Positions 1,734 through 58,713 are shown, counted from the first letter of the stretch. The stretch is 64,000 bases of DNA from Cyanobacteriota bacterium (GCA_033764955.1 JANRIL010000020.1:32001-96000), one strand, 5' to 3'. Numbers and translations: made by a program. Notes: generated from the letters alone by a model not told the origin.

Positions 1734-1763
1734 AGGCTTAGCCAGGAAAGAATGGGGGGAAAT

Positions 1764-1848
1764 TTTTAACGGCTAGCATGACGGGCGGCAGACAACATCG
1801 AAACCCAGCTAAAATATTCAATCCGTCCGGTGCAAGCGTTTATTAGGC
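1764..1848 (-). mobile_element. Degenerate integron attC site closing the methyltransferase cassette
   Basis: Minus strand GCCTAAT-aaac-GCTTGCACCGGACGG...CTGCCGCCCGTCATGC-tagcc-GTTAAAA, 85 nt; imperfect arms; shares motifs with attC sites at 45270 and 57268. Confidence 0.65.
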
Positions 1849-1940
1849 ATTCACTATAGGTGATTACGTAAGTTATTTCTATTCTCCAACTAGTTAATTA
1901 GGATGGGTTATGATATCAAGCTATTTTAATACCGAACAGC

Positions 1941-3229: not shown

Positions 3230-3393
3230 TACTACCTATACTAAACGTTGTTTGTTCAAGCCAATCTAATCGTTGACTGAAAGTGAACCGCTATAGACTC
3301 AACATCATCTTTAGTTAAGCGTGTTCGGCTCTGCTTTAAGTTGATCACGATAGGATGATTGCATCACGAATCTGACAGCCATTTGGATCCCTT

Positions 3394-11896: not shown

Positions 11897-13015
11897 ATGA
11901 TTTCTACCTCTGCTGCTCCGGTGGCTTCCAGCCTGCCCATCAAACCCCCGATTGTTGCCGCTCTCTCTGGTGGAGTGGATAGTTCGACGGTGGCGGGATT
12001 GCTCCACCAAGAGGGCTATGCCGTAGTAGGGGTGACCCTCTGGCTGATGCAGGGCAAAGGCCAGTGCTGTACCGATGGCTTAGTGGATGCCGCCACCATT
12101 TGTGAGCAATTGGGGATCCCCCATCACGTGGTGGATAGTCGGGAGGTTTTTCAGACCCAGATCATCGACTATCTGGTGACAGGCTACGCCGATGGCGTCA
12201 CCCCCCTACCCTGTTCTCAGTGCAATAAAACCGTCAAATTTGGCCCCCTGCTCACCTATGCCCGTGAAACCCTCGGAATTGACCGGATCGCCACCGGACA
12301 CTACGCCCGTATCCAACGGGATCCCCAAACCGGACGGTATCAACTGCGGCGCGCCCTGGATCGCAGCAAAGACCAGTCCTATTTCCTCTACGATCTCAGC
12401 CAGGATCATCTGGCGGGATCCCTATTTCCTCTGGGGGACTTTACGAAAGCCGAAACCCGTCGGATCGCCGCTCAATTAGGACTCGCCACCGCCGCCAAAC
12501 CCGAAAGCCAGGATCTCTGTTTAATCGAAACCCACGGCTCGATGCAGAAGTTCCTGGATCACTACATTCCGGCGGGCAAAGGCCAGATTGTCGATACCCA
12601 AGGTCACGTCCTGGGAGAACACGACGGCATTCACCATTACACCGTCGGACAACGCAAAGGGTTGGGAATTGCTGCCCCTCACCCCCTCTACGTGGTGCGT
12701 CTGGATCGAGCCATGAACCGTGTGGTAGTGGGAGAACGGCAGGAAGCGACCCAAAGCGCAGCCACGGTGCGGCAGGTCAACTGGGTGTCGATCCCCTGCC
12801 CCGGTGAAGCCATCCCCGCTAGCGTACAGGTGCGCTACCGAACGGATCCTGTCCCCGCCTTAGTCACCCCCATGCCAGATGCCCAGGGATCCCTGACCCG
12901 TGCCCATCTTCAGTTTGCCGAGCCGCAATTTGGCGTCACCCCCGGACAGGCGGCTGTTTGGTATGACGGGGATTGTGTTTTGGGAGGCGGCTTGTTAGAA
13001 CGACTGGTAGAGTAA
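11897..13015 (+). CDS. mnmA: tRNA 2-thiouridine(34) synthase
   Basis: SGGVDSS, ATGHYAR, KDQSYFL, TPGQAAV. Confidence 0.97.
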
Positions 13016-29737: not shown

Positions 29738-30037
29738 TCAATACAACTCTTCTTCTTGATGGGTCATAATCGTGCAGTCTGACGTGGGATAAGCCACACA
29801 GGTCAGGACATAGCCCGCCTCGATTTGATCATCATCCAAGAAAGATTGGTCACTCTGATCCACGGTTCCGGATGTTAGCTTGCCAGCACAGGTAGAACAA
29901 GCCCCTGCCCGACAGGAATAAGGCAACTCAAGTCCCTGCTCCTCAGCCACATCCAGGATATATTCGTCATCTGGCACTTCAATCGTAGTGTTCAGCCCTT
30001 CTGCTTCATTGATGAGGGTGACTTTGTAGGTAGCCAT
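29738..30037 (-). CDS. petF: Plant-type [2Fe-2S] ferredoxin
   Basis: MATYKVTL...CRAGACSTC...EEELY. Confidence 0.97.
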
Positions 30038-30422
30038 CCTAAAGAAATCTCCAATCAGAAACATCCACTCCTCATCCTGCCACCCTTCGGGCACAGATCA
30101 AGCGGTTTGACTAGGAAAATCTACCGTTAGTTGCAAACTTCTGCAAAGACAAGGGTTGTCCCCCCAGATTTTGCTTCCTCCCCCCTCAGGGAGCTGAGGG
30201 ATCCCGTAGAAAATTCTTCCGCCACTTGCCAACTTAGACCCTCCTGCTTGTATGATCATCTGAGTAAGAAGTAGGGTTGCACTCCCAAAACCTTGCTCTA
30301 AGTCCTATCTAAAGCCACGATCCTTACTTATCAAGGGATCAGTTGCTTTCGATAGAAATATAAGGTAAGTTAACGGGGAGTCTAGCCTAGTCTGGATCAA
30401 TTTTTTGGTAAGAGGAGTAAGA

Positions 30423-32501
30423 ATGAACGGAAACAGTCCGAAGTGGCTTCTAAAGTCACTCAGCTCTTTGACACTGGCATCCCTAGCTGTTTTGCTGCCA
30501 GTTGCTCTAGTTGGTTGCGGCTCTGATGACAGCACTACTGCTGTAACCCCCACACCCACACCCACGCCCACACCTACCCCGGCTCCCACACCTACCCCAA
30601 CTCCGGTTCCTGTAACCGCGTTCGACGTTGTCTTCACTCCTGGAGACATCGTTGCAAGTAGTGATGTCATCACCTCCTTTATCAACGGAGATGGAGCTGA
30701 CGTTGATGAGGATGGTGTTATTGAAGTTGGTTTAGAGCCTGGTATTTACCCCGAAGCCATCCTGATCGAAGTTGATGATGTCTTGATAGCTTCTACCACC
30801 GGCTCTTCTAACGATGTTCGAATTATCGGTGCCGGTTCTGGCAGCATCACTGGAACAACTGCTCCTGTTACCATTGCTTCCAACAATCTTGGAATTGTCA
30901 TTGAAAATCTGAGCTTGGTCAACGACACCCAAGATGACTCTACTGAGTACTGCATTGATGCTACTGAGGCAAGAGAGCTAACTGTAGATGGTATCCAGTG
31001 CTTCGTTGCTCCTTCTTTTGCAACTCCTGCTCAACGCGGCGTGGGGATTGGATTTGGATCTGATGCCGCCGCGATTGAGAATGACAACCTGAATGTCATC
31101 AACAGCCAATTCTATATCGGTGGTGGTGAAGATTCTGCTGCTATCGCCATTGATGGCAACGTAAGTGGAATTGTGTTGAGTGCCGAAGGTAACGGTTTCT
31201 TCCTTGGCTACATCGATGCTGACCAAAACCTTGAAACTGGATTAGATCCTGAATTCGTTGGTTCTATCGGTTCTGGTTCTGCTCCCATCTATGTTGGTGA
31301 TACTGTCACTGGCTTGGTCATTGATGCTGTTGATGGGAACCTCTTTGCTGGTGGTGACTATGTCATCCGTGACCCTAATGGTTTGGGAACCACTGCTTTA
31401 GAGCGTGAAGACATTATTCGCTCTGGTGAATTTGAAAAGGCCGTGGGTGATGGTTTCACCGATGGAGCCGTGATCAACAGCAGCACTGGCAACATCTACT
31501 ACCTGATTCAAGATGCCATTGACGAAGTTGATGGTCTCAACCCCTCTGTTGTGGTTGGCCCTGGCGACTTCACTGTCGAAGGCAACATTGTGATGGATGT
31601 GGACGGTCTAACCTTAACTGCTCTGGACGGTCCTTCCGAAACTGAGATTGACTCTGTCAAGATCCTTGCCTCTAACACCACCCTGGGTGGAACTCCCACT
31701 TCAGGTGCTGGTAACGGCTTTACTATCTCTGGTATCTTCACTGGCGATTCCTTTGCTGGTGATTACCAAGTTGCTTTGGGTGAGTGTGATAACAACTTTG
31801 CTCCTGTTATCAATGTCACAGTTGCCTACAACGACTTCTTGACCCCATCCACCACCGATGTTTACTCCAGCTTGGTGTTCTGTGATGGTGCGGCTGGTGA
31901 AGCTTACAAGAATAACTTCTTTGCTGATCCTAGCTTTGCTGGAATTTTCATCTTCGAAGCGGCTATCCGTAGCGTCTTCATTACTGAAAACGTATTCCAG
32001 TACAACGTCACTGGCGGTGAAGGCTTCATTGTTGATGCTCAGACTGGTGAACTTGGACAAAATACTCCTTTCGATGTTGGTTCCATTTCTGGCAACCTCT
32101 TCATTGATACAGGAGCCTATGTCGCTGGTGACACCCCTGTTTACCTGAATACCTTTGTCAACCTAGCTCCTGCCTCTGGACCAGGACCTTTTGCTAGTGC
32201 TTTAGAAGGTGAAGGAACTATCTTGGTTGCTTTCCGTAACAACGTGATTGAGCCAAATGGTGCTTTCATTACTCCAGCTGAGCAATTCCCTGCCACTGGC
32301 TTCTGCGGACGTGATGAAATAATTGATATCAACGTAGCTGGCACTCAGTTGCTTAACTTTGTTGATACTGCTGGATTCTTTACTACTCCTCAGATTGTGT
32401 GGGGTAACCCTGAATCTGCTCTTTGTACTGAGTTGAGCCAAGGAACTGCTCCTGCTGTCTTCCTACAGCCTTTCCCAGAAGGTATCATGTTCCAACCTTA
32501 A
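30423..32501 (+). CDS. Large acidic lipoprotein with PT linker and probable parallel beta-helix domains
   Basis: Lipobox LVGC, (TP)n linker, beta-helix cap-like motifs LEPGIYPEAILI and IQDAID...VGPGDF. Confidence 0.75.
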   Translation: MNGNSPKWLLKSLSSLTLASLAVLLPVALVGCGSDDSTTAVTPTPTPTPTPTPAPTPTPTPVPVTAFDVVFTPGDIVASSDVITSFINGDGADVDEDGVIEVGLEPGIYPEAILIEVDDVLIASTTGSSNDVRIIGAGSGSITGTTAPVTIASNNLGIVIENLSLVNDTQDDSTEYCIDATEARELTVDGIQCFVAPSFATPAQRGVGIGFGSDAAAIENDNLNVINSQFYIGGGEDSAAIAIDGNVSGIVLSAEGNGFFLGYIDADQNLETGLDPEFVGSIGSGSAPIYVGDTVTGLVIDAVDGNLFAGGDYVIRDPNGLGTTALEREDIIRSGEFEKAVGDGFTDGAVINSSTGNIYYLIQDAIDEVDGLNPSVVVGPGDFTVEGNIVMDVDGLTLTALDGPSETEIDSVKILASNTTLGGTPTSGAGNGFTISGIFTGDSFAGDYQVALGECDNNFAPVINVTVAYNDFLTPSTTDVYSSLVFCDGAAGEAYKNNFFADPSFAGIFIFEAAIRSVFITENVFQYNVTGGEGFIVDAQTGELGQNTPFDVGSISGNLFIDTGAYVAGDTPVYLNTFVNLAPASGPGPFASALEGEGTILVAFRNNVIEPNGAFITPAEQFPATGFCGRDEIIDINVAGTQLLNFVDTAGFFTTPQIVWGNPESALCTELSQGTAPAVFLQPFPEGIMFQP

Positions 32502-32552
32502 TCGTTCTATCTAGCCTCACTCTTTGATGTGTAGCTAAATAGGTTTTCAGGT

Positions 32553-32582
32553 GAGAGGGAGATTTATTCTCCCTCTTTTTTC
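32553..32582 (+). terminator. Intrinsic terminator
   Basis: AGAGGGAGA-tttat-TCTCCCTCT followed by a T-run. Confidence 0.8.
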
Positions 32583-32664
32583 ATGCGTTATTTTAGTTCG
32601 CAAAAGATTGTTGGGTAGACCTATAAATAATTCGAGAAAAGCACTTCTAATATATGTCAAGGTA

Positions 32665-32692
32665 TTGAAAAGCAAAAAATATATGATACTCT
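32665..32692 (+). promoter_or_regulatory. Putative sigma70-type promoter
   Basis: TTGAAA-N16-TACTCT with TG extension; same architecture at 33407. Confidence 0.45.
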
Positions 32693-32814
32693 TCGCTTAA
32701 GAGGATATTTGAATTAAGTCACGATATCTCTCGAAATTCTTAATCCAAGTTAAATGCTTAGGTCTTTACTAAGCCAGCTTCCCTTATCCCAATTTTCATG
32801 GAGTAACTGGGCTC

Positions 32815-33297
32815 ATGTATTTTCAAGAAAAAATAGATAACTATAAAACAAAATCCCTGATTTCTCTAACTAGTCTTGCTGCGGCTTTGGTTATAGCAGG
32901 CTGTAGCTCAGAAACCCTAACTACTCAGATCCCATCTACAGCTTCCACCACTTCTGCTAACCTAGCTGCTCCTCCAATTCAAGCCCCTGTCATTTCTAGC
33001 GTCAGACGTAAGGGAGGCTCCTCATTAAGACCCAATCTGACCATTGAAGTTATTGGGGCTAACTTTACTGCCTGTGAGGGATCTTTTGTAACCTTTGGAG
33101 TTGTTACTCCGGTGGGAGCTGTTAATCAGATTATTGCTGTGCCCGCTGAGGAATTTACTATAGTTAATGACAGCTTAATTATTGTTGATCAGCTTCCAAG
33201 AGGGGCAACTCGTTTTTCTGTGACTGTTACTAACGAGTGTGGATCTGACTCTACTCCTTTCCTACTTTTAGGCATTGCTTCATCCATACTTTTTTGA
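32815..33297 (+). CDS. Lipoprotein with IPT/Ig-like domain
   Basis: Lipobox IAGC; APVISSV...IEVIGANF..C...VTVTNECG. Confidence 0.7.
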   Translation: MYFQEKIDNYKTKSLISLTSLAAALVIAGCSSETLTTQIPSTASTTSANLAAPPIQAPVISSVRRKGGSSLRPNLTIEVIGANFTACEGSFVTFGVVTPVGAVNQIIAVPAEEFTIVNDSLIIVDQLPRGATRFSVTVTNECGSDSTPFLLLGIASSILF

Positions 33298-33406
33298 TTG
33301 CCTCGTTAACTTTGAGACAGCTTATCCCCGCATTTTATCGGTTTTCAATTCCTTCTTAGTGTGCACATAAGTTTTTCTAAAGGCATTCTTAATCGAGACT
33401 CCTATC

Positions 33407-33434
33407 TTGAAAATTTGCCAGCTTATGGTAGTCT
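33407..33434 (+). promoter_or_regulatory. Putative sigma70-type promoter
   Basis: TTGAAA-N16-TAGTCT with TG extension. Confidence 0.45.
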
Positions 33435-33542
33435 TTACTTAGAGGAGATTCCATTAATTTGTGCTTCTTTTCGGGTCAGACTTTAACTGGAACTTCCCTC
33501 ATAAACTCATCACACAAGTGGCTTCTGTTTCTACTTTAAGGA

Positions 33543-34088
33543 GTGAACTTCATGCCCTCTCAAGGAAAATTGACTAGATCCGCAAAACTGGTCGCTTCTC
33601 TAACTGGCCTCAGTGCAGCTTTGGCTATAACTGGATGCTCTACTGGGACTCCAACTGCCAATGCTCCTTCTGTCGCTTCAGAGTCTTCTGTCAGTCTTGT
33701 TTCCCCTGATAGTCTTGCTCCTGTGCTTTCTACTGTTAGTCGGAAGGGCGGATTTTCTGTGCGGCCTGTTCCCCTCCCCACTGAATTGCCCGTGGAATTA
33801 CCTGTTGAAGTGAGATCCCCCATTGTTGTGGAGATTACTGGAAGTAACTTTGAGCAGTGTGGAGGCTCAGTTGTCTCGTTTGGTTTAGTCCGACCTGTTG
33901 TTGCTGATGAAGAAGAGTTTGAAGTTGTTAGCGACAGCATTATTTTGACTGAACTTCCTGGTGGAGGTACTCGGTTTACTATCAATGTCACTAACGGATG
34001 TGGTACAGACAGCACAACCTTCCTCTTAGTTGGTTTAGGCACCCGTGACATTCCACTTCCTACTCCTACTCCTACTGCCGGGAACTAG
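33543..34088 (+). CDS. Lipoprotein with IPT/Ig-like domain, paralogue of 32815-33297
   Basis: Lipobox ITGC; APVLSTV..RKGG, EITGSNF..C, GTRF.INVTNGCG; C-terminal PT repeat. Confidence 0.7.
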   Translation: MNFMPSQGKLTRSAKLVASLTGLSAALAITGCSTGTPTANAPSVASESSVSLVSPDSLAPVLSTVSRKGGFSVRPVPLPTELPVELPVEVRSPIVVEITGSNFEQCGGSVVSFGLVRPVVADEEEFEVVSDSIILTELPGGGTRFTINVTNGCGTDSTTFLLVGLGTRDIPLPTPTPTAGN

Positions 34089-34810
34089 GCTTCTTCAACT
34101 GGCATTTACCAGTAACCTGATAGGTCAAGTTAAAAGCTAATTATTGATATCTCTAACAAAGTCTTCCTAGCACTGATAAGCTGAGATTGTCCCTCGCTTC
34201 TGAAGCTAGATTGGCTCATGTTAGAGATTTCTTTTTAAGAGACTTAATTTCTAAATCTTCTGGATTTTGCTATTTTCCCTTATTTACGCCCTGGTTTCTT
34301 CATTAAAAAAGCTGCTGTATTTTGTGCAGCAAACACTAATTAGTTAGTAGGTAAACTCGGTCACTCCTGGGCACGTTGTAAACCCAACCTTAATTGCCAT
34401 ATTAGCTCCAGCAACGGGATCCCTAAGGATGGCTGACTGTCAATATTTCTAGAGAGATCCTGCCTACATACCTGTTTCAAGAGTTGAGATGAAGTAGAGC
34501 GGTAGCAACAACCCTCGGTTGCTGATCTAGATACAAGATTCCAGCGTTAAATCTACGGTAGAGCTGTCATAGTTTTTAGAGGAGTATCAACCTCTGGCTC
34601 AGGAGGTAAAACTGTTTGCTGAAGGGGGTTTTAGGATTGAGAGTTTGAGAGGGAGAAAACACAAGAATTAGGTGAAGTGGTCATCTATAGACTGGGCACA
34701 CCTGCCGGAAAATTCTGAATATCTAACCAAGGAATCGCCAAAACTATAGTTATTTCGATTCAGCCTCGAACAGTATTAACTCTGAATACCTCTATGCTTG
34801 GAGAAGCTTT

Positions 34811-36007
34811 ATGAATCCTGTTGATTTTCCAGCAAATTTACCAACCATTGCTTCTGGCACTACCACGAATAGCGGATTACAAAAGGTGGATGTGGCGATT
34901 GTCGGGGCTGGTATTGTCGGGCTAGCCTATGCGCTGGCGGCGGCCAAACGGGGATGGAAAGTGACGGTGTTTGAGCGCAATCCTTACGCAGTGGGAGCCT
35001 CCATCCGCAATTTTGGCATGATCTGGCCGATTGGACAGCCAATAGGGAAACTTTTGGAGCGAGCCATGCGTTCCCGCCAGATTTGGTTGGAGGTAGCTGA
35101 GGCGGCAGGAATGGATCTGGAAACTTGCGGATCTTTACATCTGGCCTATCGAACTGATGAATGGGCGGTGATCGAGGAATTTGCGGCAACTCGTCAACAG
35201 GCGGGCTATCAGATTGAGCTGTTCAACCCTGCTCAAACTCTTGAAAAAAGTCCGGCGGTGGTCAGCCAAGGGTTGTTGGGATCCCTGTGGAGCGCAACCG
35301 AGATGACCGTGGATCCCCGCCAGGTTATCCGGCAGTTGCCCCGTTATCTCTCAGAAAATTGGGCGGTGCAGTTTCATTTTGGTCAGGTGGTCAACCGAAT
35401 TGAGGGAGGGCACTTATGGGTGGGTGGGCGGGTTTGGCAGGCTGACCAGATCTTGGTCTGTAGTGGTGCAGACTTTGAGACCCTCTACCCCGAACGGTTT
35501 GCTGCCAGTGGTATCACTAAAGTGAAATTACAAATGATGCGGAGCATCCCCCAGCCCGACAACTTTCGGATTGGACCTTCCCTTTGCGGTGGGTTAACCC
35601 TCACCCACTACGAAGCCTTCAGCCATTGTGCCAGCTTGGGATCCCTGAAAGAGCGTATTCAGGAGGAGACCCCCTTTTTCCCAGAGTGGGGGATCCATGT
35701 TATGGTTTCCCAAAATGCTCAGGGAGAATTAACGATAGGTGATTCCCACGAATACGGGTTGAACCCAGAGCCATTTGATCAGGTTCTAATCAACGATAAA
35801 ATTTTAGACTATCTACAATCTTTTGCTCGATTTCCCGATCTCAAAATTGCTCAACTATGGAATGGAGTTTATCCCAAAATTATTGGCAAAACAGAGTGGA
35901 TTGAATGCCCTGAGCCAGGGGTGACGATCATCAATGCCTTAAGTGGAGCAGGTATGACCCTCTCTTTTGGCTTGGCAGAAGAAGTGATAACCACACAGGT
36001 TAGATAA
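34811..36007 (+). CDS. TIGR03364-type FAD-dependent oxidoreductase
   Basis: GAGIVG, GASIRNFG, KLQMMR, GDSHEYG, SGAGMTLSFG. Confidence 0.85.
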   Translation: MNPVDFPANLPTIASGTTTNSGLQKVDVAIVGAGIVGLAYALAAAKRGWKVTVFERNPYAVGASIRNFGMIWPIGQPIGKLLERAMRSRQIWLEVAEAAGMDLETCGSLHLAYRTDEWAVIEEFAATRQQAGYQIELFNPAQTLEKSPAVVSQGLLGSLWSATEMTVDPRQVIRQLPRYLSENWAVQFHFGQVVNRIEGGHLWVGGRVWQADQILVCSGADFETLYPERFAASGITKVKLQMMRSIPQPDNFRIGPSLCGGLTLTHYEAFSHCASLGSLKERIQEETPFFPEWGIHVMVSQNAQGELTIGDSHEYGLNPEPFDQVLINDKILDYLQSFARFPDLKIAQLWNGVYPKIIGKTEWIECPEPGVTIINALSGAGMTLSFGLAEEVITTQVR

Positions 36008-44616: not shown

Positions 44617-44779
44617 GATGTATGTGGTTTGGGGATCCCATCCGCTCTTGATCACGGAAGTTCAGCCTGCCAACAGAAAGGCTTAATCAGCCTGGGATTT
44701 TGTCAATGGATCCCGCCTGCAAATGAGGCAGATCTTGGGGGTGTAGCCTGATTGCCGTGGGTGATTGGGAACGTTAGAC

Positions 44780-44973
44780 CTCCCAATCTGACTGCTGCTC
44801 AATTAGCGAGTTTGTATCGTATTAGCTATCAACTGACTTTTACGATGCTTCAACCTATTCATTTAATTTGTGTTGATGCGCGAACTCAAAATGTGTACGT
44901 CCTCGCTGGATATGACGAAGAGCTTGAGTTTCAAATTCTGCTCAATGGGGAGCCATCTGATGAGCCAGACTAA
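44780..44973 (+). pseudogene. DUF6888-like small protein (start codon apparently degraded)
   Basis: TAAQLASLYRISYQLTFTMLQPIHLICVDARTQNVYVLAG..EFQI..NGE. Confidence 0.6.
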
Positions 44974-45300
44974 TTATTCTGCAATGACTGATGCTGAATT
45001 AAAGCAATATTTTCTTAAACATCGTGGAGATCAAGCTGCTTTTCAACCATATAGTCATTCCAAATAAGAATGCGACCACCTAAATCTTGATATCCAAGCT
45101 TTGAGAGATTTTGGGTTTCTCAAACTAAATTGGAACAACTATATCTAGACAGAATTAATCAACGTCCACACAGGATTATTGCTAGTCCTGATGATCCTGA
45201 TTTTGATGAAAAAGTGCAAGCAGCAATTCGGCAAAAACTAAAAGCAGCAAGAAGCCGCCGCAATCAGCAGGCTAATAATTCAAATGCAGCGGACGGTTGA
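44960..45300 (+). pseudogene. DUF6887-like protein interrupted by a MITE
   Basis: MSQTNYSAMTDAELKQYFLKHRGDQAAFQPY|LDRINQRP...; removing 92 nt restores an 82-aa ORF. Confidence 0.75.
45052..45141. mobile_element. 90-bp MITE with imperfect TIRs and TA duplication
   Basis: TATAGTCATTCCAAATAAG vs reverse complement TATAGTTGTTCCAATTTAG (15/19 including TA); TA at 45050-51 and 45142-43. Confidence 0.75.
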
Positions 45301-45357
45301 GAACTGCTGGTGCTGAGTTCGAGGTCATCTACCGCCGCTGATTTGAGGCGGTTATCA
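45270..45357 (+). mobile_element. Integron attC site (solitary)
   Basis: GGCTAAT..CAAATgCAGCGGaCGG...CCGCCGCTGATTTG..GTTATCA; arms pair with two unpaired bases. Confidence 0.7.
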
Positions 45358-45366
45358 AAAAATGGG

Positions 45367-52521: not shown

Positions 52522-53529
52522 GTGAGGAAGATGCTCATGACGTTGTCAAAATCAGTCATCGCCTGTCTCCTTTTGGGACTATTGACAACCGCCTGTCAAC
52601 CCCAATCCTCTGATAACTCCCAGAGCACCCCTTCCGAAACCACCCCCCCTGCTTCCTCCCCCACCCCCCAACCCTCTCTTGATCCGGCAGGGGATCCCTC
52701 ACTCCCCCCTTCCCCCCAGGTTGAGGCAAGCCCTGAACTAACCACTGAACCAATAGCAATGGGGGATAGCAGTCAAACCTCCCTCGATTGGGCAGGAGTC
52801 TATCAAGGGGTTGTGCCCTGTGCCAGTTGCTCCGGCATTGAAACTACCCTCACCCTCAATCCCGATCGTTCCTACCGCCTGACCCTCCGCTATCTGGGTG
52901 AGTCGGATGAGGAGATAGAAAGGAGCGGAACGTTTAGCTGGAATGAGCAAGGCAATACCATCACCCTCAGCAATAGTGACAATGCCCCTAGCCAATATCT
53001 CGTGGGAGAAAATCAGTTGATTCAACTGGATCAGCAAGGGGAACGGATTACGGGGGGGCTAGCCGACCAATACATCCTCAGCAAAATGGATAGTTCCAGT
53101 GAGAGTTCCAGTGACAGCTCCAGTCGCTTATCCCAGGCTAGTCCGTTGGGTGAGGAGCCATCCACAACTTCTAAAAATCCTCTGTTTGATACCCGCTGGC
53201 AACTGATTGAGCTAAGAGGGGAACCGATAGAAGTTCGTTCCGATGCCCAAGCGGTACCATTTCTTCTCTTCAACACTAAGGACAATGCCTTACAAGGCTC
53301 TGGCGGCTGTAACCAATTGCGAGGATCCTATCAACGGCAAGCGGGCAACCGTCTGAGTTTCTCGCAGGTGGCTACCACCCAAAAAGCCTGTGCCGATATG
53401 GCTCTGGAATCTGCTTTTTTGGAGGTATTGGGGATGGTGGACAACTACACCCTCAGCAATGACCAGCTCAGTTTGCATAAAGCTAAAATGGCTCCTCTCA
53501 TGCGTCTTCAGGCGGTAGAAGCTCCGTAA
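52522..53529 (+). CDS. NlpE-N plus META domain lipoprotein
   Basis: LTTAC lipobox, LDWAGVYQGVVPCASCSGI, GSGGCN, TQKAC. Confidence 0.85.
   Translation: MRKMLMTLSKSVIACLLLGLLTTACQPQSSDNSQSTPSETTPPASSPTPQPSLDPAGDPSLPPSPQVEASPELTTEPIAMGDSSQTSLDWAGVYQGVVPCASCSGIETTLTLNPDRSYRLTLRYLGESDEEIERSGTFSWNEQGNTITLSNSDNAPSQYLVGENQLIQLDQQGERITGGLADQYILSKMDSSSESSSDSSSRLSQASPLGEEPSTTSKNPLFDTRWQLIELRGEPIEVRSDAQAVPFLLFNTKDNALQGSGGCNQLRGSYQRQAGNRLSFSQVATTQKACADMALESAFLEVLGMVDNYTLSNDQLSLHKAKMAPLMRLQAVEAP
53477..53529 (+). repeat. Left copy of diverged 53-bp direct repeat (3' end of META gene)
   Basis: 43/53 identical to 57929-57981 by manual alignment. Confidence 0.85.
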
Positions 53530-53599
53530 ACCGCCCTTATTCACGACCTATCCACAACATTCTCAGGGATCCAAGAGGCCGAAGATGCCTGATTACGCC

Positions 53600-54413
53600 A
53601 CCCTGCCGTTTTCCGCCGCATGGGTTTGGCTGTCGGACAATCTCTCTGAGCGAGCGCCAGGTGACTGAGCGAGGACTGACGGTGGAGAGCCTCAAGTTGG
53701 GGTGGGGGATGGTGTTTGTTACCAAGACCCAGGCTCCGGCAAGGAGACGCTGATCCGCTTGGAGGCTGAGCGGGGATTTGAAGGGATCCCTGGGGCTAGT
53801 AGGTCGCAGCAACGCTCGGAGATGATGCGCCAGATTTTGCGGCGATTGGATCTGGTGAATGCCGCTTGGGTGCGGCAGGAGATGGCAGCGATTGATCAGG
53901 GAATTAAGGAGCGGCGTTCACCTCCAAGCTGGGTGCAAAGTGCGATGGGACAGGCAGAGACCCTGGATCAGGTGGAGACCGAAGATCCGCAATAAGGTAG
54001 ATCGAGAGCGGGCTTACGTGGTGGATGCCGATGGCACGGTAGTCCTGACTAAAGACGGTGAGGCCTTGTCGGTGGACTTCACCTACGAGGAGATGCAATT
54101 GATTCGGGGCAAGGTGTTTACCCACAATCATCCCAAAGGGGGATCCTTTTCTCGTGAAGATATCAACTTTTTGCTAACCGTCTACCCATCAGAGATGAGA
54201 GCAGTGAGTCGAGATTACCGATACTCAATGAAACTGCCCGATAATCCTATCGACGCATTCTTCGAGATCAGAAAGATATTTGACCGGGTTAAAGAGTCTG
54301 TGCGACTGGAACTGGTAGAGCGAGTCAGGTCTGGCGAATCAACCCTTATTGCAGCCGAGCAGCAGTTTATGCACTTGTTAGCTGGCTTAGTTACGGGTGG
54401 TGATTGTAGTTGA
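53600..54413 (+). pseudogene. Phage MuF head-morphogenesis protein remnant with C-terminal JAB/MPN-like domain, frameshifted and cut by cassette insertion
   Basis: FPPHGFGCR.ISLSERQV.ERGL (53610 frame), GFEGIPG, then HNHPKGGSFSREDI. Confidence 0.65.
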
Positions 54414-54518
54414 AAGGTTACTGGTTGGGATTCGATGCTCTAGCCAACCTTCAAGACAGCGGCTATTCAGAAAATAAGGCGCTATACTGACAGATATTTG
54501 ACCATCGAAGATAAAACT

Positions 54519-56168
54519 ATGTTGAGAATTCAAGATTTAAACCTTGGTTTTAATGATGCTGAAAACTATAAAAGAAGTGAGAATAAGAGCCTTTTAAATA
54601 AAGTGTTTTTTAGGACAGACGAGCTTGATAGGCTTTGCGAGAGAAGCACGTTTTTCCTGATTGGTGAGAAAGGAACTGGAAAAACTGCTTGTGCTGTCTA
54701 CTTATCGAATAACGATTACAAAGATACACTATCATCAATTAATTATATTAGAGAGACGGACTATCAAAAGTTTGTTCAGATGAAGAAGAGAGAGCATCTT
54801 GCTCTTTCTGATTATGTAGATATTTGGAAAGTAATTCTATATCTACTGATCAGCAAAAACGTTAGTGAAAATGAGCCAAATAGTTTACTATTACCTAAAG
54901 CTATTAAGTTTCGCAATATTAATTCGGCTGTAGATGAGTATTATGCAAGAGCATTTTCTCCAGAAATCATAAATGCAATTAAGTTTGTAGAGAAATCCAA
55001 AATAGCTGCTGAACTTGTATCAAAATATGCCAAAGCTAGCGGAGAAGAAAGCGAAGAAATAGCGTTTTCTGAAAGCCTTTTTCAAATCAATCTCATGTAT
55101 GTCCAGAAGAAATTTGAAGAAGCATTCTCATCTCTAAAACTACAGAAGAATCATCTGCTGTTCATAGATGGAATTGATATTAGACCATCACGAATTGATT
55201 ATGAAGACTATCTTGAATGCGTTAAAGGCTTAGCAAACGCAGTATGGGCAATCAATAACGATGTATTTCCCAAAATAAAAGATTCAAAAGGACGGCTTAA
55301 AGTTGTGCTTCTAGTAAGACCTGATATTTTTGATTCCATAGGTTTGCAAAATCGGAATAATAAGATTAGAGATAACTCTGTTCTATTAAATTGGAATACA
55401 ACTTATAAAAATTACAGAAACTCCAAGTTGTTTGAAATGGCTGGAAAGTTGGTGGGGACTCAGCAAAATCCGCAAGTTCAGTATGATAAGGCTTGGGATT
55501 ACTATTTTCCCTACACAATCGAAAATAAAGCTAATAACAAGCAAAGCGAAAATGATCCATCATTTATTGGTTTCTTGAGATATTCTCTTTATCGCCCTAG
55601 AGATATTGTCACAATGCTCTCTATTCTTAAAGAAAATTTTATTGAGCAGAGACAAGATCCTAATAGAGTATTTTCTGAAGCGGATTTCTTTAACGCTGAG
55701 TTTGTCAGAAAGTATTCGGAATATCTGTTAGGTGAAATAAAGGATCAGTTGTCTTTTTACTACACGGAAAATGATTATCAACTTTTCCTTAAATTCTTCG
55801 AGTACTTGAAAGGAAAGAGCCAGTTTTCGTATGATGATTATCTCAGTGCTTATCAAGCGTTTGTAGGATATCTAGATTCAAATTCAATTAGAAGACCAAA
55901 ATTTTCTGAAGCGCCTGACGTATTTCTTCAATTTCTCTATGAGTTGAACGTCATTTTTTATATTGAGAAAGTATCGGGCGGAAACTTCATAAGACTATGC
56001 CTTCGAGAGCGAAACCCAACTAACATTTCTCCAAAAGTTAAAACACATCAAACATATCAAATTCACTACGGACTAATCGAAGAGCTTAACGTAGGTAAGA
56101 AATACACTACGCTTGAAGTAGCGTTTCGGCAGGCTTTCAATAGACCTCAGAAAATTGAGAATCAATAA
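54519..56168 (+). CDS. Sll1717/FunZ-type P-loop ATPase (cassette 1)
   Basis: LNLGFNDAE, GEKGTGKT, LFIDGID, RPDIF, RPRDI; very AT-rich; alternative TTG start 54498. Confidence 0.75.
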   Translation: MLRIQDLNLGFNDAENYKRSENKSLLNKVFFRTDELDRLCERSTFFLIGEKGTGKTACAVYLSNNDYKDTLSSINYIRETDYQKFVQMKKREHLALSDYVDIWKVILYLLISKNVSENEPNSLLLPKAIKFRNINSAVDEYYARAFSPEIINAIKFVEKSKIAAELVSKYAKASGEESEEIAFSESLFQINLMYVQKKFEEAFSSLKLQKNHLLFIDGIDIRPSRIDYEDYLECVKGLANAVWAINNDVFPKIKDSKGRLKVVLLVRPDIFDSIGLQNRNNKIRDNSVLLNWNTTYKNYRNSKLFEMAGKLVGTQQNPQVQYDKAWDYYFPYTIENKANNKQSENDPSFIGFLRYSLYRPRDIVTMLSILKENFIEQRQDPNRVFSEADFFNAEFVRKYSEYLLGEIKDQLSFYYTENDYQLFLKFFEYLKGKSQFSYDDYLSAYQAFVGYLDSNSIRRPKFSEAPDVFLQFLYELNVIFYIEKVSGGNFIRLCLRERNPTNISPKVKTHQTYQIHYGLIEELNVGKKYTTLEVAFRQAFNRPQKIENQ

Positions 56169-56202
56169 TTGGAGTGAAGTTGAAATCTACTGAGTTTTCG
56201 CC

Positions 56203-56289
56203 AGCTAACAACCCGGTTGGAGCGGACGTGCATAGTTCTTTTGTCTATCGTTCTAGTTTTCTGGTTGCCGCTCAACCGGAACGTTGAGC
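56203..56289 (+). mobile_element. attC site 1
   Basis: AGCTAAC..CCGGTTGgAGCGG...CCGCTCAACCGG..GTTGAGC, 87 nt. Confidence 0.88.
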
Positions 56290-56342
56290 CTAGGACGGTC
56301 GTGCTGAGACACTGAAGTGGATCATTCAACGGGAGGTATTTT

Positions 56343-56711
56343 ATGTCCGTATTTCGCAAAGATCAGAACGAGGTACACAGCCTTCACGGCAACCACATCG
56401 TCGGTGTTGCCACGCCTACCAGCGGCGCAAAGCAAGTTGAGATGTGGCACGGTCGCATGGATGCAAACTCCGCTACCCCACCGCACAGCCACGACACCGA
56501 AGAAGTTGTCCTGTTCCTGAAAGGCAGTGGTCGAGCCACGGTTGCCGACGCGGAAGTTCGCTACCACGCAGGGGACACACTGATCCTGCCGGCTGGCCAT
56601 GTGCACCAAATCTTCGCCGACACCGACAGTGAGTTCGTTTCAGCCAGTCCAAGCGGTGGCACGGTCAAACTTCCAGATGGTGTGGTTCTGGATCTTCCAT
56701 GGCGCAAGTAG
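56343..56711 (+). CDS. Cupin domain protein (cassette 2)
   Basis: PHSHDTEEVV, GDTLILPAGHVH; GGAGG RBS; GC-rich. Confidence 0.88.
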   Translation: MSVFRKDQNEVHSLHGNHIVGVATPTSGAKQVEMWHGRMDANSATPPHSHDTEEVVLFLKGSGRATVADAEVRYHAGDTLILPAGHVHQIFADTDSEFVSASPSGGTVKLPDGVVLDLPWRK

Positions 56712-56716
56712 CTTCG

Positions 56717-56785
56717 GCCCAACAACAGGTTCCAGTGCGACGTCCTCGCCTTCGGCGAGGACGCGCCTGAACCTGGGCGTTATAC
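56717..56785 (+). mobile_element. attC site 2
   Basis: GCCCAAC..CAGGTTcCAGtGCG-a-CGTCCTCGCC-TTC-GGCGAGGACG-CGCCTGAACCTG..GTTATAC, 69 nt. Confidence 0.92.
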
Positions 56786-56845
56786 GGCACAATAAATGAT
56801 GGTTTATGCAGATGAAGAATAGTCTATGTCGGTAAAAGAAGAAGT

Positions 56846-57253
56846 ATGTCGATAGAGGAAGAAGCCAAAGCGGTAGTGCGTCACTACGTCGAAGCATTTA
56901 ACCAAGGTGATTTAGATACACTGAAGGCACTGCTCACTGAGGATGCTGAGATTCAGGGTGTAATGGGCAAAGGTCTTATTGAGAAGATTGAGCCTATTTG
57001 GCGACAACTCATCGAGGGCTACGGTATGCAACTTAAGATCGAGGAGTTAATCGCGGAAGGCAATATCGTGGCAGCAAGGTATGTTGAGACAGGAGTTTTC
57101 AGATCACCAGCGTTTGGGAATCAGCCAACGGGAAAATCTTACGAGCTTGTTGCAATGGAATGGTTTGAAATAGAAGGGGGTAAAGTTAAACGCCGTTGGG
57201 GCGCTAGGGATGCTGCATCGCAGGCACGGCAACTAGGCATTCCTCTGCTTTAG
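56846..57253 (+). CDS. SnoaL-like ester cyclase / NTF2-fold protein (cassette 3)
   Basis: VVRHYVEAFNQGD, IEELIAEGNIVAAR, PTGKS, GKVKRRWG. Confidence 0.88.
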   Translation: MSIEEEAKAVVRHYVEAFNQGDLDTLKALLTEDAEIQGVMGKGLIEKIEPIWRQLIEGYGMQLKIEELIAEGNIVAARYVETGVFRSPAFGNQPTGKSYELVAMEWFEIEGGKVKRRWGARDAASQARQLGIPLL

Positions 57254-57267
57254 CCTGAATACATGCC

Positions 57268-57356
57268 GTATAACATAATTCGCTTGGAGTGGACGGAACA
57301 GAGGTTATCTGTGGGTGTTCAAGGTTATCTACCGCCGCAAGACTTCACCGTTGGGC
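57268..57356 (+). mobile_element. attC site 3 (degenerate arms)
   Basis: GTATAAC..GCTTGGAGTGGACGG...GTTCAAGGTTATCTACCGCCGCAAG..GTTGGGC. Confidence 0.75.
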
Positions 57357-57463
57357 TGCTCAGTTCATATACTCAGTTCGTATAAGTTCATATAATGGAG
57401 AGGTAGTTCATTGGCTCTCTCCCAATACTTAGGGAATATCTGATATGAACAATATTCAGATGA

Positions 57464-57913
57464 ATGGTCAAGCTCATCACCACTGTCACTGACACTGACC
57501 TCTGGCAACTCTTTGCTCGGATCGATACAACTTTACGTAACCCTCAGCCCCTCTACCAAGCCTGAGCCAATCACCTCAAATCCCGCGTCGTCGCCGCCTT
57601 CAAACAAGAAACCTCACCCGCTGATCAAGCATGGCCGGAACTTAAGAGCGCCACCATCCATCGCAAAAGCCGGAACTCCCGCAGTATCAACAAGAAGCTT
57701 CGAGATACAAGAACTCTCTATGACTCAATAGCTGCTCGTGCGATGCCCGATGGCGCGGCAATCGGCACCAATCAGCGAGTGGGATCCTACAGTCTGGGGG
57801 CAATCCACCAATACGGCGCGCCCCGCCAACGGATCCGGCTGCGTCCGTTTTTGCCTGTGGACGCAAATGGCAACCTTCTGGAGAAAGACATTTTAAAGAG
57901 GCGGTTGGTTTGA
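57464..57913 (+). pseudogene. Phage virion morphogenesis protein (Mu gpG-like) with internal TGA at 57563
   Basis: Manual translation: F.QETSP.DQAW.EL..AT, LRDT.TLYDSI, IGTN, AIHQYG, RPFLP. Confidence 0.8.
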
Positions 57914-57928
57914 CTCAAGACTGGCTGA

Positions 57929-57981
57929 ATAAAGCGAAGATAGCTCCTCTCATGTCTTTTGAAGTGGTAGAAGCTCCCTAA
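57929..57981 (+). repeat. Right copy of diverged 53-bp direct repeat
   Basis: Encodes KAKIAPLMSFEVVEAP* vs KAKMAPLMRLQAVEAP* in the left copy. Confidence 0.85.
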
Positions 57982-58077
57982 TTGGCTCTTATCACCTATC
58001 CATCCTCAAAACATCCTCAAACAATTGCAAATCCTTCTAAGCTAGGGGAGGATTGGTCAAGAAAGGGATCCCGGATC

Positions 58078-58713
58078 ATGGTGAGGGTGTTGCTGCCTTT
58101 GGTGGATGGCTTTGAAGAGATTGAAGCGGTGACGGTGATCGATATTCTGCGGCGGGCTGAGATAGAGGTGGTGGTGGCAGCACTAGGGGAGATCTGGGTA
58201 ACGGGCAGTCATGGCATAGTGCTCAAAGCGGATACAGGGTTGGGGGATCTCCTGAATGCATGTGGGGGATCCCTGGCGGCGGACTGTCAACAGCTAGCTA
58301 AGCAGTTTGATGGATTGGTGTTGCCGGGTGGCCCTGGCACAGCCACCTTGCAAGCAGACGGGCAGGTTGGGGAATTGGTGCGGGCTTTTGCTGACCAGAA
58401 TCGCTGGCTAGCCGCCATCTGCGCGGCTCCCATGGTCTTGGCTCAACAGGGGATCCTCCAGCAAAAAGCCGCCACTAGCTACTTCAGCCGCGAGGTTTAT
58501 CAGCAAGCCAGGGCAGGGCAGATCACCTTGAATGTGGTGACAGGACCTATTGCCGACTATCAACTGGATCCCGTCGTGGTGGATGGCAACGTGATCACCA
58601 GCCGAGGGGCAGGTACGGCGGTAGCCTTTGCGCTGGCATTGGTGCAGGCATGGTTAGGCGAATCACGGGCGCTAGCAATTGCTCAATCCATTCACGCCCC
58701 TTGGCCGATCTAG
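58078..58713 (+). CDS. DJ-1/PfpI (YajL-like) family protein
   Basis: GFEEIEAVTVIDILRRA, LPGG, AICAAP, ITSRGAGT. Confidence 0.92.
   Translation: MVRVLLPLVDGFEEIEAVTVIDILRRAEIEVVVAALGEIWVTGSHGIVLKADTGLGDLLNACGGSLAADCQQLAKQFDGLVLPGGPGTATLQADGQVGELVRAFADQNRWLAAICAAPMVLAQQGILQQKAATSYFSREVYQQARAGQITLNVVTGPIADYQLDPVVVDGNVITSRGAGTAVAFALALVQAWLGESRALAIAQSIHAPWPI

Follow-up and report, generated by a model that had tools for sequence, protein, structure and literature searches.

A 4.4 kb islet in a cyanobacterial chromosome holds three integron cassettes together with about 1.4 kb of phage debris. The interval, part of a 64,000-nucleotide (nt) stretch of DNA analysed here as a whole (hereafter, the window), is a genuine three-cassette array without an integrase (CALIN). 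We favour, as the probable explanation, an array taken from the cyanobacterial cassette pool that joined a phage-derived gene by an attG crossover and whose right end was rearranged later.

The cassette array

The three cassettes follow one another on the + strand at 54378–56283, 56284–56779 and 56780–57350, with GC contents of 0.355, 0.581 and 0.464 compared with 0.518 for the window. Their attC sites, attC1 (56200–56289; R′′ GCCAGCTAAC, R′ GTTGAGC), attC2 (56716–56785; R′′ GGCCCAAC, R′ GTTATAC) and attC3 (57265–57356; R′′ GCCGTATAAC, R′ GTTGGGC), all lie on the + strand within 1.2 kb. The first 10 nt of cassettes 1, 2 and 3 match the reverse complement of their own R′′ boxes at 10/10, 8/10 and 10/10 positions, respectively, and a search of both strands of the window finds two exact copies of GTTAGCTGGC, at 54377 (+) and in the attC1 R′′ box (56200–56209).

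attC1 and attC2 share the layout R′′-AAC-stem...stem-AAC/GGC-R′, their 5′ arms carrying extra bases, and fold into imperfect hairpins with extrahelical bases on the R′′/L′′ arm. They rank at the top of the 2642 AAC..GTT pairs in the window, with attC2 in first place; its bottom strand folds at −25.4 kcal/mol (z −5.0), a value equalled by none of 200 shuffles. attC3 folds poorly by itself (−6.5 kcal/mol) and qualifies as an attC site through homology and stem covariation, being 81–86% identical to attC copies on the Kovacikia plasmids pB and pA and to three Synechocystis plasmid copies; the similarity ends at the GTT in four of these five copies and extends 10 nt further in pA. An attC model of our own (R1), with attC1 and attC2 outside its training set, scored 23.7 bits on attC1 (E 7.5e-5) and 22–33 bits on the untrained pB sites c, d and e, and its score for attC2 (8.7 bits, E 7.9) is not significant alone. 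A search of Rfam returned no hits. No tyrosine recombinase was found among the 45 other open reading frames (ORFs) of at least 120 amino acids in the 64 kb window, and tblastn with the pB IntI against the window (best E 2.5) revealed neither intI nor the trace of an intI pseudogene.

All three cassette ORFs are intact. The ORF of cassette 1 (54498–56168, probable ATG at 54519) encodes a P-loop ATPase of the Fun(Z)/Sll1717 family, with 58% identity to phage P2 Fun(Z) over 95% of the query, 208.6 bits on NF047389 (cutoff 75) and a match to phrog_13260 (E 4.9e-124); no PADLOC model matches it. Cassettes 2 and 3 contain a cupin ORF (56343–56711; Cupin_2, E 3.5e-12) and a SnoaL-like ORF (56846–57253; SnoaL, E 1.8e-16). 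If these genes are expressed, as we presume, the array would now provide accessory functions: a predicted abortive-infection ATPase of the Fun(Z) type, together with the cupin and the SnoaL-like protein. The sources consulted (note to the P2 record; bioRxiv 10.1101/2021.03.08.434280) say that T5-like phages, T-even phages and others are blocked by P2 Fun/Z, and give its mechanism as unknown. The cassette 1 gene resembles P2 fun(Z) in being an AT-rich accessory gene in a phage-related setting, but differs in being an integron cassette with an attC site, and its anti-phage role in a cyanobacterium is putative; by eye, no attC-like site is seen beside P2 fun(Z).

A close comparison is offered by the integron annotated on plasmid pB of Kovacikia minuta CCNUW1 (NZ_CP083584.1), whose integrase reaches 468 bits against TIGR02249, where the cutoff is 265. 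In three of the four pB sites a–d (a, b and c) the R boxes and stems pair, and AAC spacers of the window type occur in b, c and d, not in a. The window array and pB have in common the attC architecture, one attC sequence family (81% identity to attC3) and the R box GCCAGCTAAC/GTTAGCTGGCTT found at cassette 1, whereas pB differs in having intI, an attI that contains two direct repeats, and other cassette genes. No similarity was found between one pB cassette ATPase and the window proteins, and the methyltransferases in this comparison are only 37% identical.

Phage-derived flanks

To the left of cassette 1, positions 53991–54377 (+) encode a JAB/RadC-like domain with an HNHP..S..D motif, identified by homologues, alignment and predicted fold. 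The original prediction had called this flank a MuF remnant, which our searches do not confirm: Pfam profiles run on 53531–54410 in either frame match neither PF04233 (Phage_Mu_F) nor any other family at E ≤ 1, PBECR and toxin families included, and the 460 nt upstream of the domain have no MuF homology (best profile E 1.4; no database hits). A profile built from 34 full-length relatives for the MuF search matches the C-terminal domain only. The domain itself has 1529 homologues at E ≤ 1e-3, and its predicted structure (pLDDT 89) has RadC 2qlc, JAMM1 and AMSH as top fold matches. The domain can also form a protein by itself; in 14 of 30 scanned relatives the upstream partner is PF04233 MuF (13) or PF06152 Phage_min_cap2 (1). 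The left flank is thus a JAB/RadC-like domain of the kind found C-terminally in MuF-type phage head proteins and in polyvalent proteins. Variable enzymatic domains have been described at the C-terminus, behind the MuF domain of head proteins, and RadC/JAB is listed among polyvalent-protein domains (PMC5576092, BMC Biol 2017; PMC5512222, J Bacteriol 2017); unlike MuF polymorphic toxins and polyvalent proteins, the islet gene is broken and has no surviving MuF domain. A genome scan for relatives gave only sequences of at most 46% identity, none of them cyanobacterial.

Further left, 53566–53990 (+, GC 0.59) has no assignment. It contains an ORF (53702–53995) for which a search among longer proteins gave no homologue and whose frame differs from that of the next domain; the stretch may be an upstream portion of the same phage gene, put out of frame by a frameshift. 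The next gene upstream is an NlpE/META lipoprotein gene (52522–53529), not a portal gene.

On the right, the predicted gpG-like pseudogene is confirmed, and it shares its strand with the left flank. Read through one in-frame TGA, 57464–57913 (+) matches PF05069 (Phage_tail_S) with E 2.4e-13 and 50.7 bits (cutoff 24.3) over profile positions 3–137 of 148; TIGR01635 gives 29.4 bits, under its cutoff of 37.65, and an alignment of relatives agrees, with 78–79% identity to two proteins from cyanobacteria that bear the name ‘phage virion morphogenesis protein’. The pseudogene as a whole (57464–57930) has two lesions, the TGA at codon 34, where six of seven aligned relatives have Trp, and a frameshift near 57890–57897. 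Its last three codons are replaced by a repeat described below, and ...LTQDWLN is found in another frame at 57910–57930.

No phage-like ORF was detected among the 45 others in the window, nor any further phage gene (transposase, portal, protease/scaffold, major head or tail) in the islet. The phage DNA is about 1.4 kb of debris, two gene fragments and not a prophage, and the proposed setting within a Mu-like prophage head module is not borne out. Placement between F and G draws on the usual partners of the left domain (14/30), because the MuF domain is absent.

A diverged direct repeat, D1, marks both ends of the islet, with 84 nt at 74% identity and a spacing of 4452; the alignment reaches about 53565/58019. 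The left copy (53474–53565, +) comprises the last 56 nt of the lipoprotein gene and about 37 nt past it, and the right copy (57926–58019, +) is a displaced, diverged META gene 3′ end that reads KAKIAPLMSFEVVEAP followed by a stop. The end of gpG runs in frame into the right copy; by eye, the fusion lies at a short microhomology, TGNATAAAGC.

A clean left junction and a probably rearranged right end

The start of cassette 1, G54377|TTAGCTGGC, interrupts the reading frame as ..FMH L|LAG. The coding frame at this start was correctly predicted, but its attribution to MuF itself was not (no PF04233). Coding homology to the JAB/RadC-like domain reaches the conserved His128 (54372–54374), 3 nt from G54377, and stops within 3 nt of the G54377|TT boundary. 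All six relatives checked extend 17–24 residues beyond the break, as do the stand-alone relatives, so that the gene is truncated about 17–24 codons short of its relatives’ end. The 11 residues now present as a tail raise the score by 2.2 bits, which lies within the variation among 504 control joins (mean 170.7, s.d. 1.4) and counts as noise; homology past 54377, which would have spoken against a break at this point, was thus not detectable. Also as predicted, there is no attI or attC site to the left of cassette 1, where the stretch folds no better than shuffles (z +0.52) and is coding up to His128. The junction, GTTAGCTGGCTT, is the same over 12 nt as the pB attI/first-cassette junction. Judged from its sequence, it fits an integron-integrase crossover at a secondary non-att (‘attG’) site in a phage-derived gene, with the integrase as the presumed enzyme. 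A lone clean junction of this kind is equally compatible with an integrase-mediated deletion (attC × nearby secondary site).

The right end has a different character. A 19-nt exact match to the Kovacikia pA copy (57342–57360) spans the attC3 R′ box GTTGGGCTGCT, and the 10 nt after G57350 (TTGGGCTGCT, 57351–57360, +) are the same as the bases following the pA attC; they are therefore cassette DNA, the start of a fourth cassette, and not target DNA. No AGCAGCCCAAC-like R′′ box lies to the right of this start. The 103 nt that follow (57361–57463, +) are without known origin, with no homology found; they hold three short repeats of the AGTTCATA/AGTTCGTA type, with a possible fourth by eye, and 57351–57463 (113 nt) has a GC content of 0.37. 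The tail of the interrupted JAB gene was not found at 57351 or elsewhere in 57255–57470, a weak test given that this tail of about 20 residues is poorly conserved. The right end is not the reciprocal junction of the left crossover, as it has a cassette-derived R′ and no gene tail was found, where an attG insertion should show (W)T and the rest of the target after the G of the last attC; a simple one-step insertion does not account for the present structure. The predicted integrase insertion at a secondary site thus holds up at the left junction, but not as a reciprocal pair of junctions.

Motif density offers an indication of relative age. GGATCC, an iterated motif of the host, occurs 195 times in the window compared with 16.7 expected from composition, and the phage flanks, with three and two copies, are at host density, whereas the 2983-nt array has none against about 9.1 expected at that density. 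This contrast suggests that the array came later than the phage flanks.

Origin of the islet

In the favoured explanation, the array would be drawn from the cyanobacterial integron cassette pool, and its left end would have arisen when an integron integrase recombined (G|TT) an attC site with a secondary non-att site in the gene for the JAB/RadC-like domain. Because the array occupies the place of the 3′ end of that gene and a short spacer before gpG, it would have entered phage DNA between an F-like gene and G. Afterwards, the right end would have been rearranged: a fourth cassette, the last attC site and the interrupted gene's tail would have been lost, so that only 10 nt of cassette 4 and the 103 nt without known origin are present; this order of events is the one that we infer. 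Such a course has parallels in the account by Loot et al. (bioRxiv 10.1101/2022.09.11.507474) of attC × genome-site insertion with a GWT consensus, followed by excision at or outside the insertion point that causes chromosomal modifications. Like the attG CALINs and SALINs described there, the islet has no platform or nearby integrase and a target...G|TT-cassette boundary without att structure, and rearrangement beside the insertion is also among their reported outcomes. It differs from them in the absence of the reciprocal right junction, in its target, a cyanobacterial phage-derived gene, and in having three cassettes where that account places its emphasis on single- and two-cassette cases.

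Could the array instead have been part of a Mu-like temperate cyanophage already, as superinfection-exclusion cargo occupying a moron slot between the F and G genes? Phage-derived genes stand on both sides, in F-then-G order and on one strand, and cassette 1 is homologous to a phage-borne lysogenic-conversion gene. Integrons and CALINs are also reported from phage and prophage genomes (PMC9892861, Front Microbiol 2023), including the Shewanella cryptic prophage M16-3, cited there to a study of Mu-like prophages, in which a complete integron, together with a CALIN, is flanked by tail, scaffold and terminase genes. As described for M16-3, the cassettes of the islet sit among phage structural genes, but the islet has no integrase, attI or recognisable prophage and its gene is broken at the cassette boundary. 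We nevertheless consider this origin unlikely: the lack of GGATCC in the array, set against host density in the flanks, points to residence times that differ, the interrupted gene has no tail and no other phage gene is left. In the Mu-like phage JD024, F and G do abut, as the original prediction had said of Mu-like phages, but the variable locus follows G rather than separating the two, and none of the three phage records matching the left domain carries cassettes. Nothing here reveals the phage hotspot ferrying cassettes that had been proposed, and the proposed alternative, an insertion that disabled the prophage, would have to be read from about 1.4 kb of surviving phage DNA. Still less probable, indeed very unlikely, is that the array is the remnant of an ordinary chromosomal integron whose intI, attI and upstream cassettes were randomly deleted, with the phage fragments as unrelated neighbours. 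CALINs are thought, in the account by Loot et al., to form through integrase loss, the window has no intI and the right end was clearly hit by an illegitimate event; yet the left break lies no more than 3 nt from G|TT in a 1906-nt cassette, for which a random endpoint has a chance well under 1%, the phage genes on either side are collinear, and tblastn shows no trace of an intI pseudogene.

Another question is how the islet reached its present position. The whole 4.4 kb may have been imported as a block from another cyanobacterium, through homology within the NlpE/META gene at one end and an illegitimate join at the other, in which case the phage would never have been resident here. The islet lies between two copies of the gene 3′ end and about 37 nt beyond it, at 74% identity, and a short microhomology marks the in-frame fusion between gpG and the right copy; in situ duplication of D1 is unlikely because the copies are too diverged when the three cassette ORFs show no damage and gpG no more than two lesions. 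However, an element integrating into the gene 3′ end with its own copy, followed by deletions, would give the same picture, and we regard block import as possible though doubtful. This idea bears on the islet and can stand alongside the explanation preferred for the array.

Implications

The attG insertion mechanism and the presence of cassettes in prophages are both covered by published accounts (10.1101/2022.09.11.507474; PMC9892861), and the islet is a natural example of this recently described cassette spread, not a new kind of element. A broader and quite improbable reading is that integron cassettes and phage morons form one gene pool, with a temperate Mu-like cyanophage taking up the array through an integrase acting at a non-att site between an F-like gene and G and carrying superinfection exclusion of the Fun(Z) type. 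If this were true, phages would be vehicles moving cassettes between integron-bearing and integron-free hosts, and some AT-rich morons, P2 fun(Z) for example, could have been cassettes once and since lost their attC sites.

A cassette array between phage-derived flanks

The interval 53530–57980 is compositionally distinct, with a GC content of 0.34–0.40 at 54–56 kb against 0.52 for the window. On its forward strand lie a pair of open reading frames with no Pfam match (53702–53995 and 53859–54413), a 556-residue P-loop ATPase (54498–56168), a cupin (56343–56711), a SnoaL-like protein (56846–57253) and, 3′ of the last, a short frame with a weak Phage_tail_S match. The ATPase, cupin and SnoaL-like genes occupy cassettes 1, 2 and 3 (54378–56283, 56284–56779 and 56780–57350), ending in sites attC1, attC2 and attC3. 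An Rfam search of 53400–58100 returned zero matches, promoter and terminator scans gave counts not above those of shuffles, and a search of solved structures by sequence yielded no match below E 0.04.

The cassettes follow a chain rule, the bases that start a cassette after the G corresponding to the reverse complement of the box just 3′ of its own reading frame. The two are complementary at 10/10 positions in cassette 1 (GTTAGCTGGC at 54377 and GCCAGCTAAC at 56200), 8/10 in cassette 2 (GTTGAGCCTA at 56283 and TCGGCCCAAC at 56714) and 10/10 in cassette 3 (GTTATACGGC at 56779 and GCCGTATAAC at 57265); the first 10-mer of cassette 1 was not found elsewhere on the two strands of the window. For attC2 the bottom-strand fold has an energy of −25.4 kcal/mol (z −5.0; 0/200 shuffles as good), and for attC1 it has −16.5 kcal/mol (z −1.9; 9/200 shuffles as good). 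Among all 2642 AAC...GTT pairs in the window, the first three ranks (1–3) belong to arms of these two sites. A simple RYYYAAC...GTTRRRY scan missed real attC sites because their boxes deviate from this pattern.

The third site folds poorly alone. As MAFFT and RNAalifold gave a poor consensus on mixed attC types, the structure was written by hand for one family, that of attC3. In its seven copies 83.7% of inner-stem cells are paired, 5/14 pairs have changed on both sides, and 2/500 shuffles reached the covariation score of 0.211. A covariance model of these seven copies (R1), which includes neither attC1 nor attC2, was run over the whole window with filters off and gave six matches at E ≤ 10, three being training copies. 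It recovered attC1 at 23.7 bits (E 7.5e-5), attC2 at 8.7 bits (E 7.9) and a weak match at 12739–12842 (E 3.8). On this evidence attC3 is complete, with its R′ box GTTGGGC at 57350.

The left flank ends in a MuF-associated domain

The original prediction placed the array between a MuF remnant and a gpG-like pseudogene. On the left, the 140 residues encoded by 53991–54410 match no family in Pfam, PHROGs (best E 0.0099), NCBIfam or PADLOC. Among 1.84 billion representatives, 1529 are related to them at E ≤ 1e-3. In these the domain is either C-terminal in proteins of 430–560 residues or stands alone in proteins of 150–220 residues. Among 30 scanned relatives, PF04233 (Phage_Mu_F) lies upstream of the domain in 13 and PF06152 (Phage_min_cap2) in one; two have only other domains or a sub-cutoff Phage_Mu_F match (21.2 bits against 29.6 in P0004), and 14 have no Pfam domain.

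The structure of the domain was predicted with confidence (mean pLDDT 89.3) from 21 sequences. Its best fold match is RadC (2qlc; probability 0.99, E 1.9e-3, TM 0.34–0.43), followed by JAMM1 and AMSH, with none in the fold search at E ≤ 0.001. An invariant E...HNHP.G.SFS..D pattern is compatible with a JAB-type metal site.

MuF itself was not detected upstream by Pfam or PHROGs, nor with a profile built from 34 full-length relatives, nor by phmmer against 150 hits. No homology to MuF or to anything else was seen in the 460 nt that separate the domain from the upstream gene, a search with the 53702–53995 frame among longer database proteins found no homologue, and the space is about 1 kb short of a full MuF gene. 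Because the domain follows MuF in 13 of the 30 scanned relatives and no MuF match occurs here, the left flank is better described as a MuF-associated C-terminal domain than as MuF itself.

The right flank is a gpG pseudogene

The gpG assignment on the other side was borne out. With one in-frame TGA read through, the right-flank frame that opens at ATG 57464 encodes 149 residues. These align with PF05069 (phage virion morphogenesis, gpG family) with an E value of 2.4e-13, covering profile positions 3–137 of 148. The most similar proteins, two intact ones encoded in cyanobacterial assemblies, are 78–79% identical and carry the name ‘phage virion morphogenesis protein’. Three lesions appear in the alignment: codon 34 is TGA instead of the Trp found in 6/7 aligned relatives; the sequence ...LTQDWLN, C-terminal in the closest relative, lies in another frame at 57910–57930, and there is therefore a frameshift near 57890–57897; and the final three codons are replaced by KAKIAPLMSFEVVEAP*.

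In a phage collection the protein matches 82 records at E ≤ 1e-3, none of which reaches 60% identity; Pseudomonas phages account for 62. The Mu-like phage JD024 has the order portal, minor head protein, gpG-type gene, variable anti-CRISPR locus. A search of cyanobacterial plasmids for the same gpG or JAB gene found none.

The left junction coincides with the cassette crossover point

The conserved His128 of the JAB domain is encoded at 54372–54374 and Leu129 at 54375–54377, and cassette 1 begins at 54378. Six relatives that were checked extend 17–24 residues further with a conserved ..VW..V....Y.RE pattern, as do stand-alone relatives; past Leu129 the window reads LAGLVTGGDCS*. The present sequence scores 172.5 bits on the family profile, compared with 170.3 bits when cut at residue 129. 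This tail behaves as noise, because its score lies within the spread of 504 control joins to arbitrary downstream positions (mean 170.7, s.d. 1.4, 95th percentile 173.4). No homology was thus detected beyond 54377, as had been proposed, and the claim that cassette 1 has no att-like structure to its left also held: neither a hairpin nor an att-like feature is present there.

Random deletion would not readily place a break within 3 nt of the crossover point in a 1.9-kb cassette. Integrase crossover at a non-att site would leave such a clean left junction; Loot et al. describe attC × non-att insertion, with a GWT consensus and later excisions at or beside the insertion point (bioRxiv 10.1101/2022.09.11.507474). 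The same single clean junction would also result if an integrase deleted DNA between an attC and a secondary site close by.

The right junction calls for a further event. Directly after G57350 comes TTGGGCTGCT; the 19 nt at 57342–57360 are identical to the attC copy on Kovacikia minuta plasmid pA, after which similarity stops. The bases after G57350 are the start of another cassette, since a target sequence is not expected to share them with pA, and no matching R″ box was found 3′ of them. The following 103 nt (57361–57463), for which no relative was found, hold three short repeats and by eye a possible fourth. A profile scan of all frames right of the array for the missing tail of the JAB gene gave no match, a short variable tail being hard to detect; joins at 57305, 57325 and 57351 score 171.8–172.6 bits, against 170.3 for the truncated domain and 170.7 ± 1.4 for controls. 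With the right-end bases cassette-derived and the tail not found, the present arrangement therefore requires at least one extra event after, or instead of, simple insertion.

Age of the array and origin of the islet

The palindrome GGATCC occurs 195 times in the window against 16.7 expected from composition, 91 of these as GGGATCCC; GCGATCGC has two occurrences. Such an iterated host palindrome serves as a marker separating native from recently acquired DNA. The phage-derived flanks carry it at host density (3 in 848 nt and 2 in 620 nt), whereas the 2983-nt array has 0 against about 9.1 expected at that density. Cassette GC contents differ widely (0.355, 0.581 and 0.464), and the cassette reading frames are intact whereas the phage genes are broken. 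On these three grounds we read the array as younger in this lineage than the surrounding phage DNA.

The roughly 4.4-kb islet is bounded by two copies, 74% identical, of the 3′ end of an NlpE/META gene plus about 37 nt (53474–53565 and 57926–58019); in the right copy the end of gpG runs on in frame. Mu-type transposition was rejected as the origin of the islet. The data fit either an element that integrated into this 3′ end and then decayed, or an imported block with one homologous and one illegitimate join; the 64-kb window contains no further phage gene and no integrase. A genome scan for an empty site or an intact prophage, with the NlpE/META protein as query, gave 11 loci, all at ≤46% identity and none cyanobacterial.

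The stretch 30000–35000 also has low GC (0.42–0.48) and contains reading frames 30405–32501 (698 residues), 32815–33297 and 33543–34088, for none of which Pfam gave a match at E ≤ 1e-5; this stretch may be a further acquired island.

A Fun(Z) homologue in cassette 1

The cassette 1 protein is 58% identical to Fun(Z) of phage P2 over 95% of its length and meets the NCBIfam model NF047389 (Sll1717-family P-loop ATPase); relatives at 77–94% identity in the protein collection are mostly unnamed. Because the Fun(Z) alignment begins at residue 8 of the frame listed from 54498, the gene probably starts at ATG 54519, not TTG 54498. The P2 record notes for Fun(Z) that the ‘cloned gene blocks growth of T5; lysogenic conversion’. 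In the BASEL study, every phage of the Tevenvirinae, Vequintavirinae and Markadamsvirinae that was tested was inhibited by Fun/Z, through a mechanism that the study describes as unknown (bioRxiv 10.1101/2021.03.08.434280). No attC is visible by eye beside P2 fun(Z), ‘funZ’ is absent from the main text of a preprint on defence cassettes in chromosomal integrons, and a literature search on funZ found nothing relevant.

The attC3 family extends to other sites and plasmids

When the islet was compared with plasmids by blastn, only 57284–57360 matched, at 81–86% identity in five cyanobacterial plasmids. On K. minuta plasmid pB the match lies directly after the first cassette of an annotated integron, whose integrase scores 468 bits on TIGR02249 (cutoff 265). 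This copy has a textbook attC fold (−21.6 kcal/mol), and the complement of its R″ box GCCAGCTAAC is found at the attI/first-cassette junction GTTAGCTGGCTT. Of the other attC sites on pB, three (b, c and d) have the R″-AAC-stem...stem-AAC-R′ layout of attC1 and attC2, whereas copy a has a different spacer. With R1, pB sites c, d and e, none of them in its training set, scored 22–33 bits, and site b was missed. A pB cassette ATPase has no similarity to the 30405–32501 product or the Fun(Z)-like protein.

On plasmid pA, within L016 12078–12400, the attC copy is followed after 10 nt by what appears by eye to be an IS200/IS605-type transposase-like gene, and a second family copy lies at L016 3785–3882 on the reverse strand (56.3 bits). 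On Synechocystis plasmids, runs, each on one strand, of dihydrofolate reductase-family, GNAT and ASCH genes (L015 2190–4075, L018 8097–10075 and L017 8190–10075) terminate in unannotated attC sites of the attC3 family and are candidate cassette arrays.

Within the window, a further family site at 45264–45362 (forward strand) was first detected by blastn; it is an R1 training copy and scores 74.3 bits by construction. The 3′ half of another attC, at about 44750–44780 on the same strand, matches pB attC b at about 19/22 nt by eye, and small reading frames without family matches lie between the two. The segment 44750–45362 is a second cassette spot, directly 3′ of an OprB porin gene. On the reverse strand, a third family site at 1758–1855 (also a training copy, 67.1 bits by construction) lies 3′ of a C-5 cytosine DNA methyltransferase gene with a frameshift (2297–3229 and 1941–2315), in a low-GC stretch (0.41), and 1758–3300 is probably a single-cassette insertion. 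This methyltransferase is only 37% identical to that of a pB cassette.

Discussion

Cassette insertion outside att sites is in print, by laboratory demonstration and by inference from genome surveys, in the preprint of Loot et al. (bioRxiv 10.1101/2022.09.11.507474), as are integrons and CALINs (cassette arrays without an integrase) in phages and prophages, including M16-3, cited there to a Mu-like prophage study (PMC9892861), and defence genes carried in cassettes. Literature searches on attC with prophage and integron with cyanobacteria, with non-exhaustive coverage, found no cassette array in a cyanobacterial phage remnant. What is new is this instance, its Fun(Z) cassette and the shared attC family in cyanobacteria. 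The observation is genuine, clean at its left end, less clear at its right and ordinary in kind, and it leaves the accepted view of integron function unaltered. It provides a natural, sequence-resolved junction of an integron cassette array with a non-att site, in cyanobacteria and in phage-derived DNA, and connects two topics, cassettes carrying anti-phage genes and cassettes within phage DNA: the gene in the first cassette is closely related to P2 Fun/Z, whose abortive-infection effect is broad and of unknown mechanism. At least two more attC-bearing spots lie in the same window (1758–1855 and 45264–45362), and the attC family common to Kovacikia and Synechocystis plasmids is a possible probe for cyanobacterial cassettes.
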